Source: a virus
Length of the DNA stretch: 64,000 nt
Direction: 5' to 3' (one strand)
IMG/VR virus record: IMGVR_UViG_3300031857_000082
Span: 23,215 to 87,214 of that record
Position 1 is the first letter of the stretch. Each line of letters starts with the position of its first letter. Positions 35,285 through 52,379 of this stretch are shown here, piece by piece. Below the pieces are notes generated by a model. It was not told the origin of the DNA, searched no databases, and saw nothing but the letters and a program-made list of their open reading frames with translations. Made by a program: the position numbers and the translations under genes.

Positions 35285-35860
35285 TTAAGCCCCCATAAGC
35301 AAGAAGTGAGTCTTTAATCCCCCACCACCGCCTGCACCTGACATTATAATCCACTCATTACCATTATACACTTTTAATATTGGAGTGGCTGGTTCTGTAG
35401 TATCAACCCATAACTGTCCTAGTAAAGGAGAAGTCGGGGTAGTTGAAGAATATACAATATCTCTTTCAAAATTTGCACTAGCACTAGTAGATAAATATTT
35501 TGCATCACTTTGTTCTTGAGTATATACATTTGCAATAGAAAGAGATTTTAAAGAAATAATTTCAATTACACTACCCGCCCCAATTGAGGCAAGTCCTGTA
35601 ATGCTTGTGCCATTTGAGGCGGTATAGTCAGAATTTCTAACCAATAAAATTCCATTTAAAAATACTTGTTCATATCCTGGAGAATAAGAAAGATTAAGAC
35701 CATTATCATCATATCCAAATAATGTTGTTTCTCCACCTGTGGCAATTTTTTGCCATCTTGTGGAATTAATAAGATTATTTTGTGCGTTTAAAGGAAGCCA
35801 ATTTGTACCATTCCATGCATACATTGCTTTTCCTGTATTTAGTATTGATGCTGATGCCAT
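35285..35860 (-). CDS. Fibre backbone/branch protein
   Basis: N-terminal YAWNGTNW, GYEQV..NG...DYTA domain, C-terminal FLLMGA. Confidence 0.65.
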   Translation of the reverse strand: MASASILNTGKAMYAWNGTNWLPLNAQNNLINSTRWQKIATGGETTLFGYDDNGLNLSYSPGYEQVFLNGILLVRNSDYTASNGTSITGLASIGAGSVIEIISLKSLSIANVYTQEQSDAKYLSTSASANFERDIVYSSTTPTSPLLGQLWVDTTEPATPILKVYNGNEWIIMSGAGGGGGLKTHFLLMGA

Positions 35861-35863
35861 TTA

Positions 35864-36823
35864 TTATGCTCCAAAGACTGATGGTATGTTTAAAGCAAAT
35901 CTAATCATGACTATTCCAGTTCCACCATTGCCACCATTACCTCCACCACCACCGCCTGTATTGGAAACACCATTTGTTCCACCTTGACTATTGCCTCCAT
36001 ATCCACTTCCTCCACCACCAAATCCTCCTACTCCAGGTGCACCACTATCATCTGCTCCACCACCACCTCCTGCATAATACGTTGTTGATCCAGATAAAGA
36101 AGATTGTAGTCCATTTCCACCATTTCTTCCAGAACCTCTTCCTGGGTTTAATGATTGTGCTGCTCCTGCTTGACCAGCACCTCCACCACCTCCACCACCT
36201 CCAGCGTTGCTTTGGCCACGACCTCCAGCATTTCCTTGTCCAGATGTTCCAGGTGCTGCGTAAGTAGAGTCTGCGTAAGCAGTTCCTCCACCAGATCCAC
36301 CACTTAATCCATAATCATTATTGTCTGTACCTCCACCTCCACCACCAATTGCTGTTAAAGATAAAAGTACTGAGTCTCCTCCGTTTGATCCCCTACTTCC
36401 AGTTGCCCCACCTGCTCCACCAGCACCAACTGTAACCGTAGTTGTTCCACTTGGAATTGTTAATGATTGTGCTATAAATCCACCAGCACCGCCACCGCCA
36501 CCATAATTATTGCCACCACCACCTCCACCGCCTGCAACAACTAATACTTCAGAAATACAGCCTGCAAGTGGTCCTGGATTATAAGATGATGTAGATGTAA
36601 ATGTTTTTAATGCATAATATGTTCCACCAGTTTGATAACTTGTATATCCATTTGTATTTAAATAATTTAAAAATCTTGCAGTACTTCTAATTGTAGAAAT
36701 ACTACTTCCTATACTTTTTTCATATTCAACATAAGAAAATAAACCATTAGCAGTAACATTATTTGCTAACCCTGTTATTTCTGAATAAGTACTTCCACTA
36801 CCGCCAAGTCTTGATATACCCAT
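35864..36823 (-). CDS. Glycine-rich fibre tip protein
   Basis: Gly-rich domain; paralog of 37370-38356. Confidence 0.75.
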   Translation of the reverse strand: MGISRLGGSGSTYSEITGLANNVTANGLFSYVEYEKSIGSSISTIRSTARFLNYLNTNGYTSYQTGGTYYALKTFTSTSSYNPGPLAGCISEVLVVAGGGGGGGNNYGGGGGAGGFIAQSLTIPSGTTTVTVGAGGAGGATGSRGSNGGDSVLLSLTAIGGGGGGTDNNDYGLSGGSGGGTAYADSTYAAPGTSGQGNAGGRGQSNAGGGGGGGGAGQAGAAQSLNPGRGSGRNGGNGLQSSLSGSTTYYAGGGGGADDSGAPGVGGFGGGGSGYGGNSQGGTNGVSNTGGGGGGNGGNGGTGIVMIRFALNIPSVFGA

Positions 36824-50049: not shown

Positions 50050-50075
50050 TATTTAATCATACCTCCTTTTCTTTT

Positions 50076-52379
50076 TTATATTTCATATCTTATTAATACT
50101 CTTCCAGAACCACCAGAGCCTCCAGTGCTTCCTCCAGAACCACCAGAGCCAATTGTTACTGTATAATTCTGTGCGTTAGTAACTGTTTGTGAACTTAAAG
50201 TTTGTAGTTGTCCACCACCACCACCGTGTCCACCGTTGGTTCCACCTCCGCCACCACCACCGTAATTAGAAGGGGCACTTGATCCTGTAGCGTTACCTGA
50301 ACTTCCACTTCCATTTGCACCACCATGTTGTCCAGATGCTCCACCTCTATCTCTTGCACCACCTCCACCGCCACCTCCTGCATATTTGTATGAGTATGTT
50401 GCATTTCCAAATTCGTTAGACCATGCTGACAAGCCTATTCCACCAGGACCAGCACTTCCACCACCATTACTACCAGCACCTCCAGCACCTCCACCGCCAC
50501 CACCAGTTTCAGCGTATGATGCAGATACTCCAGTTCCTCCTAAAAATCCATTTCCAGAAGTTCCTCCTCTTCCAGAGTTAGCAAAAGAATTTCCTGCTGA
50601 ACCTACTGTTCCATATATACTAATTCCTAATCCTGTAACACTGCTAACATTTCCATTTGAACCACCTGATCCAGCACCTCCTCCTGATATAACAACCATA
50701 TCAACATTTGCTGTACCAGTTGGTGTAAATGTACCAGTTGATGTAAAATCATGTAATTTATATGTTGAAGCACCAGAGGTTACTGTTGTAATGCTTCCAC
50801 CTGTTGCATTAAATGTTGTTATTGAAGAAGAGGTATTTGATACCTGAGAAGTTCCATTATCATTTGTCGCTGTCATTGTAAATGTATAGTTTGTTCCAGG
50901 ATTTAAACCAGATACTAATATTGGAGATACCCCACTTCCAGTTATAGAAGATGGAGAAGATGAAACTGTATATGAACTTATTGCTTTACCACCAGTTCCT
51001 CCACTTGAATAGTAAACATATGCTCTGGATTTTGTTCCATCTGCATTTGCTGAACTTATTATTGGTGCTTCTGGAACTGTTGTTGCAGTTATGCTATTTG
51101 AAGAATTAGACGCTGTAGAGGTTCCAGCAGTATTTGTTGCTGTTACTGAAAATGTATAGGAGGTATTAGACTGAAGCCCTGAAACAACTATCGGTGATGA
51201 TACTCCAGTTGCAGTGTATGATCCAGGAGTTGATGTTACTGTAAATGAATCTGCTGCATCTCCTGCAGTTGATGATGCAAACGTAACAATTGCAGCACCA
51301 TTATTATAAGGACGCCCAGTTCCAACATCTGATGCAGATACTCCAGTTGGTGCCCCAGGTTTGTTTAAAGAAACATACTCGTTTAAAATATTCCATCCTT
51401 TAATAGCATTTATATACATTACTTCTACAGATGAATCAGGAGTGTTAATTATATAAGCACTTGCTCCACCAATATTATTTCCATTTCCTAATACTGTAAT
51501 ATTATTATTTTGTGCATTTGCTGCTACATCTAAAACTTTTATTTTTGATCCAGTAGTAGGTGATGATGGAAGTGTTACATTTATAGAACTTGAGGCACTA
51601 TTTACAAATATAGTTTCATTATCTTGAGCATTATGATTTTCAGATATTGAAGTAATTGAATCTTTTGTTTGATAAGTTGTAGATGCAGAAGATATTGAAA
51701 GTTTGGAAGATAAAGCATTAGTTACAGTAGTTGCAAAGTTTTGATCATCTCCAAGAGCATTTGCTAGTTCATTTAGAGTATCTAGAGCACCAGGTGCTGA
51801 ATCAACAAGATATGATACTGCAGCAGCACTTGCTGATTGAGCATATTGCAAAGTAGCATAATTAGTTAAATTTAAATTGTTATTAGCATTTGACTCAGTA
51901 ATAATCTTAGAGTCATTTATTTTTATATTACCGTTTGAATCTACACTTAAAGAAATGTTTGCACTAGCATTTGCAGGATTTTGCAGGTATAAAGAAGATG
52001 CTCCTAAATATAAATCTTTTACTCTATATGCAGAAGAACCAATACTATAAATATTATCTACATCTGGTATTAAATTACCATCACTATCTTCAGTCCAAAA
52101 TAATAAACTTGTTCCACTACCGCCTCCACCACTTGAACCACCAGTTCCTGTACTATCACTATCTACCCATAGTGCACCTAACTCTGCTCCATCTGGTGCT
52201 TCTGGTTGATAATATACAGATGCTGCACCAGCACCACCAGTTAATTCTGTCCACGTACCGTCAGCATATATTTTAACAACATTATCTGTAGTATTAAAAT
52301 ATAAATCGCCCTCTGACCCAGTCACTGGATCTGAGGATAAATTCGTTAAATTTATCGGTGTTAAAAACTTCTTTGACAT
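50076..52379 (-). CDS. Multidomain fibre protein (FN3 + Gly-rich)
   Basis: 767 aa; DTLNEL domain, two FN3 repeats, Gly-rich C-terminus. Confidence 0.7.
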   Translation of the reverse strand: MSKKFLTPINLTNLSSDPVTGSEGDLYFNTTDNVVKIYADGTWTELTGGAGAASVYYQPEAPDGAELGALWVDSDSTGTGGSSGGGGSGTSLLFWTEDSDGNLIPDVDNIYSIGSSAYRVKDLYLGASSLYLQNPANASANISLSVDSNGNIKINDSKIITESNANNNLNLTNYATLQYAQSASAAAVSYLVDSAPGALDTLNELANALGDDQNFATTVTNALSSKLSISSASTTYQTKDSITSISENHNAQDNETIFVNSASSSINVTLPSSPTTGSKIKVLDVAANAQNNNITVLGNGNNIGGASAYIINTPDSSVEVMYINAIKGWNILNEYVSLNKPGAPTGVSASDVGTGRPYNNGAAIVTFASSTAGDAADSFTVTSTPGSYTATGVSSPIVVSGLQSNTSYTFSVTATNTAGTSTASNSSNSITATTVPEAPIISSANADGTKSRAYVYYSSGGTGGKAISSYTVSSSPSSITGSGVSPILVSGLNPGTNYTFTMTATNDNGTSQVSNTSSSITTFNATGGSITTVTSGASTYKLHDFTSTGTFTPTGTANVDMVVISGGGAGSGGSNGNVSSVTGLGISIYGTVGSAGNSFANSGRGGTSGNGFLGGTGVSASYAETGGGGGGAGGAGSNGGGSAGPGGIGLSAWSNEFGNATYSYKYAGGGGGGGARDRGGASGQHGGANGSGSSGNATGSSAPSNYGGGGGGGTNGGHGGGGGQLQTLSSQTVTNAQNYTVTIGSGGSGGSTGGSGGSGRVLIRYEI

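Follow-up and report, generated by a model that had tools for sequence, protein, structure and literature searches.

The tail fibre proteins of an uncultured phage carry a repeat motif that is intact in some of them and split in others, with the two halves lying on separately encoded proteins. The motif was analysed in a 64,000-nucleotide stretch of IMG/VR record IMGVR_UViG_3300031857_000082 (positions 23,215 to 87,214 of that record; hereafter the window). It is a small four-stranded unit. The first half (H1) comprises a short strand, a proline-containing loop and a strand of the form G-x-hydrophobic-W-x-D, and H2, the second half, is a hairpin with the pattern hydrophobic-x-hydrophobic-Y/W-N-G-x-x-W. 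An H1 that is not followed by an H2 is termed a socket, and an H2 at the N terminus without a preceding H1 is termed a plug. The window contains five sockets and five plugs, and each plug is encoded after a socket. We put at about even chances the proposal that the fibre subunits dock by completing the small β unit in trans, a joint that is predicted from the sequence.

Hidden Markov models (HMMs) of the two halves, with seeds chosen by pattern and a threshold of 6 bits or more, gave 250 matches for H1 and 176 for H2 in 2051 open reading frame (ORF) translations, as against one and three in shuffled copies. Chance is excluded as the source of the half-motif matches. In the whole record of 87,214 bases the HMMs match 14 ORFs, every one of them within the window, and the record holds no further sockets or plugs. 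Intact H1-H2 units are found in the proteins of 426, 767, 144, 271, 191 and 73 amino acids (aa), and the 146-, 342- and 326-aa proteins have units whose H2 is degenerate. The half-motif strings quoted in an earlier, sequence-only reading of this DNA were all recovered in the proteins named, both in a regular-expression map and in the HMM map. As that reading had stated, the 767-, 873-, 359-, 414- and 271-aa proteins carry H1 without H2, the 873-, 359-, 414-, 144- and 191-aa proteins begin with H2 (5-12 residues from the N terminus), and the 191-aa protein has no free half. Each of the five starts that bear a plug has an in-frame stop 0-1 codons upstream, so that none can be extended and the plugs are truly N-terminal.

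The fibre-like genes, with PHROG tail-fibre matches, occupy about 26.3-54.2 kb of the window on the minus strand. The proteins that carry the split motif, and the positions of its halves, are as follows.

50076-52379, minus strand: 767-aa fibre protein, with a putative N-terminal anchor of FLT type that contains an intact motif (residues 9-49), a socket and a poly-Gly linker; more distally it has a coiled region, then FN3 domains and, at the C terminus, a Gly-rich domain
52155-52223, minus strand: socket of the 767-aa protein (H1, residues 53-75), followed by poly-Gly and no H2
47428-50049, minus strand: 873-aa fibre protein, with an N-terminal plug and socket, two domain cores of T4 gp10-like (XD-like) type near residues 448 and 642, and a C-terminal domain that is C1q-like
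49975-50019, minus strand: plug of the 873-aa protein (H2, residues 11-25)
49885-49959, minus strand: socket of the 873-aa protein (H1, residues 31-55), then poly-Gly
44281-45360, minus strand: 359-aa fibre protein, with a plug-plus-socket module at the N terminus
45280-45327, minus strand: plug of the 359-aa protein (H2, residues 12-27; predicted strands 13-16 and 21-24)
45202-45264, minus strand: socket of the 359-aa protein (H1, residues 33-53; predicted strands 34-37 and 49-52), then an acidic linker
42366-43610, minus strand: 414-aa fibre protein, with plug and socket
43545-43592, minus strand: plug of the 414-aa protein (H2, residues 7-22)
43086-43160, minus strand: socket of the 414-aa protein (H1, residues 151-175), preceded by a W-hairpin module and a Gly-Ser-Gly linker
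41273-41707, minus strand: 144-aa protein, with a plug, two intact motifs and a short collagen-like stretch, and no socket
41648-41695, minus strand: plug of the 144-aa protein (H2, residues 5-20)
38690-39505, minus strand: 271-aa protein, with two intact motifs, a socket, an XD-like domain, and an intact motif plus tail at the C terminus
39197-39268, minus strand: socket of the 271-aa protein (H1, residues 80-103)
38939-39181, minus strand: gp10-like (XD-like) β domain of the 271-aa protein (residues 109-189)
35285-35860, minus strand: 191-aa protein, with a plug directly followed by an XD-like domain, a C-terminal intact motif and no free H1
35783-35827, minus strand: plug of the 191-aa protein (H2, residues 12-26)
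27526-28059, minus strand: 177-aa protein, whose last 23 residues (27529-27597) are an H1 that ends the protein
26324-27517, minus strand: 397-aa protein, whose first ~43 residues (27389-27517) are three W-hairpins of the second-half type

If docking occurs, this module would encode a branched receptor-binding apparatus, in which a socket is filled by the plug of a protein that is encoded downstream of it. Two chains are predicted, one that runs 767>873>359>414>144 (lengths in aa) and one that runs 271>191. The socket-only 767- and 271-aa proteins would be the roots, the 873-, 359- and 414-aa proteins with both plug and socket would serve as extension cords, and the plug-only 144- and 191-aa proteins would be the ends. 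We infer physical docking, together with its geometry and its order, from the sequence. The sockets lie 30-175 residues from the N terminus and are followed by Gly-rich (poly-Gly) or acidic linkers. Because the sockets are N-proximal and flexible linkers follow them, a branched tree is expected rather than a single linear fibre: the joined N-terminal modules would form a short stem, and the distal part of each protein would branch at its joint. The sequence-only reading had proposed seven proteins in one ordered head-to-tail fibre, and this geometry does not agree with the position of the sockets. It had also placed each missing half in the next backbone gene. Between these backbone genes, one to four other genes are skipped at the junctions concerned (342 and 326 aa; 207 aa; 211 aa; and 110, 328, 135 and 319 aa). 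The junction from the 144- to the 271-aa protein, which had been read as a different split pair, has intact motifs on both sides, and the adjacency of the two genes is not kept in relatives. Thus the observation of the earlier reading is confirmed, its interpretation is supported in part, and binding stands as a prediction.

Sorted by sequence pattern alone, the N termini of the fibre proteins include five plugs and three of the form M-x-R/K-x-R-D, and FLT-type N termini are found only in the 426- and 767-aa proteins. The M-x-R/K-x-R-D N termini belong to the 342-, 326- and 73-aa proteins (window 45378-47405 and 33769-33990).

Recurrence of the split motif in other phages

The relatives that were found are, without exception, uncultured IMG/VR contigs. 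The half-domain/next-gene rule of the sequence-only reading was examined in these and in a second sample of loci, and the outcome was positive in both. Chains in the relatives comprise 0, 2, 4 or 5 proteins and are closed, with contig fragments being less tidy. Locus L001 has a chain of four, in which a 438-aa protein (intact motif and socket) is followed by 352- and 284-aa proteins, each with plug and socket, and by a 189-aa protein with a plug. In loci L021 and L007 two pairs are seen. In the first, a socket protein of 267 or 294 aa precedes a 347-aa protein with a plug and then intact units, and in the second, a 643-aa socket protein precedes a 199-aa plug protein. In L006, a 190-aa socket protein precedes a 159-aa plug protein. 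The homologue of the 767-aa protein lacks a socket in L041, L008 and L016, and no plug proteins are in view there; a homologue without a socket is also present in the records that hold L004 and L006.

The second sample consisted of 80 loci (L119-L198) fetched by means of the domain that follows the plug of the 191-aa protein. Ten of them contain a socket (L121, L122, L124, L178, L184, L187, L190, L191, L192 and L196). A protein that starts with a plug is present in all ten and is encoded downstream of the socket in nine. Of the 70 socket-less loci, two have a plug protein (L119 and L120, with only 2.5-3.8 kb of contig upstream) and 68 lack one. The 2x2 table was compiled by regular expression and reading by eye, and plug matches of the regular expression in L152 and L197 were discarded as false. 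Fisher's test for co-occurrence of socket and plug gives 4e-11, a value that overstates the evidence because the ten socket loci represent about six families and the calling was partly by eye.

In about 60 of the 80 loci, which are on siphovirus-like contigs of ~40 kb, the domain lies within a protein of 650-1240 aa with an intact, diverged H1-H2 before it, and there is no plug protein. The arrangement of H1, H2 and domain in one chain is therefore the undivided form. In L178, L187 and L190, H2 is absent exactly where sister phages have it, and a plug opens a downstream protein of 232-268 aa. The fibre of L122 and L124 has H1 plus a short tail at its end, and the next gene begins with a plug.

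Homologues of the 271-aa protein were also surveyed, with 148 representatives examined of 6383 at E of 1e-3 or better. These gave 127 H2 matches, of which 43 lacked an H1 by regular-expression pattern. Nineteen of the 43 begin no later than residue 12 (a few of these could be gene calls that are truncated). The remaining 24 lie within the protein; reading by eye places an H1-like stretch immediately before 21 of them, and three follow a variant without the tryptophan. Since all 19 real orphans begin this early, the true orphan H2 is an N-terminal feature. The plug itself is well kept, being at the start of 109 of 120 among the homologues of the 191-aa protein that were listed, down to ~45% identity. 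A non-random split of this kind, recurring in unrelated fibre proteins, fits docking by motif completion in trans.

Proteins that end in the first half

The sequence-only reading noted the same logic where the 177-aa protein is followed by the 397-aa protein, and this is borne out: the 177-aa protein stops three residues past the Trp of its H1, and the 397-aa protein starts with W-hairpins. The pair would form a true C-terminus-to-N-terminus joint. A fusion of the two ORFs by readthrough or frameshift was considered and rejected; 8 nucleotides separate the stop from the ATG, the frames differ, and a GGAG sequence overlaps the stop.

Many unrelated proteins, 67-1349 aa long, have an H1 at the end. 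Six families are clear cases in which the gene that follows opens with two or three H2-like hairpins: the window together with L211 and L212; L023; L105 and L107; L219 and L220; L221; and L223. Two further cases are weak, namely the 170-aa protein of L109 and locus G003. The gap from stop to start in the other H1-ending families is 1-39 nucleotides.

Locus G003 is from the record that holds L006 (43118-44541, minus strand). Its 184-aa protein ends in H1, and the gene after it encodes 286 aa with a long Pro-rich stretch, an FN3-like part and three H2 hairpins, which are at the C terminus and not at the N terminus. A near-identical ending, consisting of a Pro loop and D-G-N-N-G-D-I-W plus 2-4 residues, is present in L213-L224 on unrelated proteins of 67-864 aa from many contigs, and it looks like a widespread C-terminal docking tag.

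Structure predictions and alternative explanations

An AlphaFold2 (AF2) monomer model of the 271-aa protein was built on 16 aligned sequences. The three intact units have strands assigned and a predicted local distance difference test (pLDDT) score of 83-89 as block means. The socket has a pLDDT of 53-58, and no strand is predicted between residues 76 and 114. The β domain at residues 109-189 is modelled with a pLDDT of 88-97. Residues 114-187 of the model superimpose on residues 187-250 of CBA120 TSP4 with a Z-score of 9.3 and a root mean square deviation of 1.6 Å over 64 aligned residues, and three chains are matched at Z of 8 or more. The match to N-terminal domains of T7-like fibres has Z 6.5-6.9, and that to one chain of 5iv5, a T4 baseplate entry, has Z 6.3. 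From these structural matches the domain is identified as gp10-like or XD-like. Four XD-like sequence cores are present in the window; the 873-aa protein has two of them, and the 271- and 191-aa proteins have one apiece.

The presence of this domain raises the explanation that the fibres branch in a known way, as those of Ackermannviridae and KP32-type phages do, with the N-terminal H2 docking on the XD domain rather than on an orphan H1, so that the neighbouring H1 would be incidental. For N-terminal peptides and domains, attachment to XD domains is an established mode of docking (PMC13352976, PMC11414711). A plug protein is present in six of six loci where H1 directly precedes an XD-like domain without H2, and the plug of the 144-aa protein has a weak match to the Pfam family Tail_spike_N (PF18668; E 0.031, 14.8 bits against a cut-off of 25). 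On the other side, the sockets of the 767-, 873-, 359- and 414-aa proteins do not adjoin an XD-like domain, and no XD domain lies at the joint of proteins with a C-terminal H1. The four XD-like cores could instead be partners of the M-x-R/K-x-R-D N termini of the 342-, 326- and 73-aa proteins. We regard docking on the XD domain as quite unlikely to account for the split.

A second explanation takes the splits as neutral scars of gene fission or module shuffling, and the plug-only proteins as non-virion proteins or as proteins attached by unrelated means. The fibre module is heavily mosaic, which would suit such an origin. It is most improbable as a full account, since the same split arose in many unrelated fibre families and the plug is conserved in the homologues of the 191-aa protein, as described above. 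The combination of plug and socket is conserved as well. Across 18 diverse sequences there is no variation at two Trp residues, one Pro and one Gly, and almost none at another Trp and a Tyr.

Several observations weigh against docking in trans. In the alignment of these 18 proteins, the plug, linker and socket form one conserved N-terminal module of ~50 residues, whose linker has a constant length of 5-12 residues. An H2-like cis hairpin and a short Gly or Ala linker precede every socket; this hairpin is either the plug of the protein itself, an intact unit's H2 or a W-N-E...W-x-F hairpin, and in other phages it can be G-K-Y-L-T-T-D-G...S-W. When the first 110 residues of the 359-aa protein are modelled by AF2 as a monomer, all four strands (13-16, 21-24, 34-37 and 49-52) are present, with a pLDDT of 58-82. 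Given the conserved block and these four strands in a monomer, the plug-socket module may be self-contained. The 767-aa protein has, past its poly-Gly, a conserved hydrophobic-W...G-N-L-I-P element at residues ~90-105, also seen by eye in L001 and in several database homologues, which could fill its own socket in cis. The parity of sockets and plugs is imperfect in L004 (three against four), L005 (two against one) and L121 (one against two), all of which are contig fragments. Three to four families of H1-ending proteins have no hairpins in the next gene (L213-L217, L222, L224 and the 208-aa protein of L109). Tandem arrays of H2 alone also exist, three copies in a 233-aa protein of L023, three at the C terminus of the G003 protein and those at the N terminus of the 397-aa protein, so the halves are not obligate partners. 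Co-occurrence of socket and plug could arise in one step, if the end of one gene and the start of another were inserted into an intact motif; it is therefore not fully independent evidence of binding. Finally, the five plugs are nearly alike, as are the five sockets, and no pair-specific covariation was seen by eye. Plugs and sockets are too alike to account for a fixed order, and the idea in the sequence-only reading that cognate pairs encode the order finds no support here.

The main rival explanation is that there is no joint in trans and that the split is a matter of repeat phase. The hairpins would be rungs of a continuous β stack that can start or end at any rung. The plug, linker and socket would be a self-contained N-terminal domain, circularly permuted or completed within the trimer, and attachment would be through other surfaces. 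Recombination at the conserved block formed by H2 and the following Gly, in which gene segments are gained or removed, would create a socket and a plug at once, and thereby their co-occurrence. The cis hairpin before every socket, the conservation of the module as a unit with its constant linker, its four strands in the monomer model and the arrays of H2 alone all agree with this explanation, and parity is equally expected if the modules satisfy themselves. Two proteins appear recombinant, joined exactly at the H2-Gly block. The 324-aa protein of L041 (7959-8933) has an FLT anchor unit joined to a body of the 347-aa type, and the 438-aa protein of L001 (6036-7352) has an anchor of the 767-aa type with socket and C-terminal parts of the 873-aa type. 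These forms suggest that the H2-Gly block is a recombination point.

Repeat phase leaves several findings unexplained. Orphan H2 hairpins are confined to N termini (19 of 19), proteins that end in H1 so often precede genes that start with H2 hairpins, and plug-only proteins occur where a socket exists (10/10 against 2/70). The socket in the AF2 model of the 271-aa protein is not folded onto the cis hairpin before it, and proteins made of a plug and distal domains still require a site of attachment. On balance we hold repeat phase to be somewhat unlikely as the whole explanation, and docking in trans is retained as the favoured one. A complex prediction that paired the first 112 residues of the 271-aa protein with the first 36 of the 191-aa protein gave no answer (in a run without controls the scores were 0.09 and 0.07 against a mark of 0.32, and the fold of the partner was uncertain), and it counts neither for nor against docking.

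No solved relative of the motif was found in Protein Data Bank sequence searches with the 271-, 359- and 144-aa proteins and a 41-position motif profile. The matches were to a coiled segment of a tail collar fibre (9d93, E 1.3e-06), to collagen peptides and, without significance, to propeller designs. A wide structural search with the 359-aa N-terminal model (VIA-align) covered 48,161 chains and matched none of them at Z of 2 or more. In Pfam, DUF7360 (PF24059; 24.1 against 27.6 bits) and DUF2793 (PF10983; 15.9 against 27 bits) were matched below the gathering cut-off, and these, like Tail_spike_N, are resemblances and not memberships.

Known fibre joints and genomic setting

The long tail fibre of T4 is built from gp34, gp35, gp36 and gp37, separate proteins joined C terminus to N terminus in a line. 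Compared by architecture, the proteins described here would likewise be separate, encoded in order and joined. The joints of T4 are end to end, whereas most sockets here are N-proximal, which implies branching. In chaperone-usher pili, a segment at the N terminus of the next subunit completes an incomplete β domain, and an ordered non-covalent polymer results. There a single strand enters the groove of an Ig-like pilin with the help of chaperone and usher, while the element proposed here is a two-strand hairpin that would complete a four-stranded mini-unit. A Pfam scan of 10 fibre proteins matched no pilin, chaperone or usher family, which does not in itself exclude the fold. The likeness to donor-strand complementation drawn in the sequence-only reading is thus an analogy only.

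Beta-propellers can build one blade from two chain ends, the so-called Velcro closure. A blade is a four-stranded meander of ~40 residues with a similar Pro...Gly-x-hydrophobic-aromatic pattern. The 41-position motif profile matched designed propellers without significance, at E 0.12-0.6, with a similar Pro...Gly-x-hydrophobic-Tyr pattern in the blade. Neither prediction nor matching gave a propeller fold, and the resemblance serves as a lead only.

A closer precedent is the baseplate tripod of Lactococcus phage Tuc2009, solved by crystallography, in which a C-terminal β-hairpin of BppU completes a sheet of domain 2 of BppA (PMC4742702). There, too, a terminal hairpin completes the β domain of another adhesion-device protein, which is the principle suggested for the 177>397 joint and for the plug-socket pairs. 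The Tuc2009 case is a titin-like Ig sandwich with a single joint, neither a repeated motif nor a series, and the case described here is predicted only.

Also established is the branched receptor-binding complex, which can be multi-layer and combines T4 gp10-like (XD) branching domains with docking elements at the N terminus (PMC13352976, PMC11414711). The examples are CBA120 TSP1-4, the Klebsiella phages KP32, K11 and KP34, and G7C. As in those systems, the fibre or spike proteins here are encoded side by side, one or two alone carry a virion anchor (here a putative one, on the FLT-type 426- and 767-aa proteins) and the others carry short conserved N-terminal elements. Layers could be stacked in both, with a secondary protein carrying the next site, and a gp10-like β domain is present here as judged from the AF2 model of the 271-aa protein. 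The difference lies in the proposed pair, which would be two halves of a repeat motif rather than a peptide on an XD domain. Most sockets here do not adjoin an XD-like domain. Moreover, the phage is long-tailed and siphovirus-like rather than a podo- or myovirus, and up to five proteins would be connected in series.

The assembly of many receptor-binding proteins is known for only a few cultured phage models. If the joint is real, it would provide a simple rule to predict which fibre proteins of uncultured phages connect, and with what topology. It would explain how proteins are gained and lost without failure of assembly, as in the chains of 0, 2, 4 and 5 in relatives. Next to XD branching domains and the Tuc2009 hairpin joint, the two known ways in which phage adhesion proteins are joined, it would stand as a serial variant based on a motif. 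It would also suggest a compact pair of ~20-residue tags that might be tried for fixing foreign binding domains onto phage fibres in laboratory phage-host systems. A wider proposal is that the split β unit is a general joint in the branched fibre trees of many tailed phages, including the freshwater siphoviruses here, and forms a plug-and-socket code that can be read from sequence. This is tentative, and we rate it at somewhat below even chances. Under such a code, extension-cord proteins would let evolution lengthen or shorten the tree by one receptor-binding protein at a time, and the architecture and stoichiometry of fibres would be readable from gene sequences alone. A literature search on tail-fibre strand complementation and the related Pfam families, with supplementary files outside its scope, found no description of this split motif. 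The new part would be the use of the halves of a common fibre repeat as a serial plug and socket in a siphovirus-like phage.

The minus-strand products in the window include a 2609-aa tape measure protein, a major head protein, a protease, a portal, a ribonucleotide reductase and a tailspike. The phage is uncultured and, carrying a tape measure protein of this length, appears long-tailed and siphovirus-like. A megablast search with 9 kb against a phage collection gave no match.

Other features of the fibre region are a cassette and a shared module. At 31268-41707 (minus strand) a cassette is repeated at least five times, each consisting of a fibre protein that ends in an intact motif and a hydrophobic tail, a protein of ~110 aa and a Gly-rich protein. 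The 342-aa cassette member matches Pfam Gly_rich_2 at E 3.4e-15. The cassette is present in L008, L016 and L021 too. The 73-aa ORF (33769-33990, minus strand) resembles a minimal fibre that starts with M-x-K-A-R-D, contains a single intact motif and has a hydrophobic tail; a 110-aa gene and then a Gly-rich gene follow it. A module of ~70 residues is common to the 414-, 426- and 834-aa proteins (42366-43610, 52430-53710 and 28070-30574); its pattern is ...E-D-N-hydrophobic...L-N...A-G-I-E-V-E-R-G..., followed by a W-x-E...W-x-F hairpin. In L021 the fibre module is bracketed by genes for large FAD-type proteins (73-1524 and 18723-20321), which are halogenase-like by eye.

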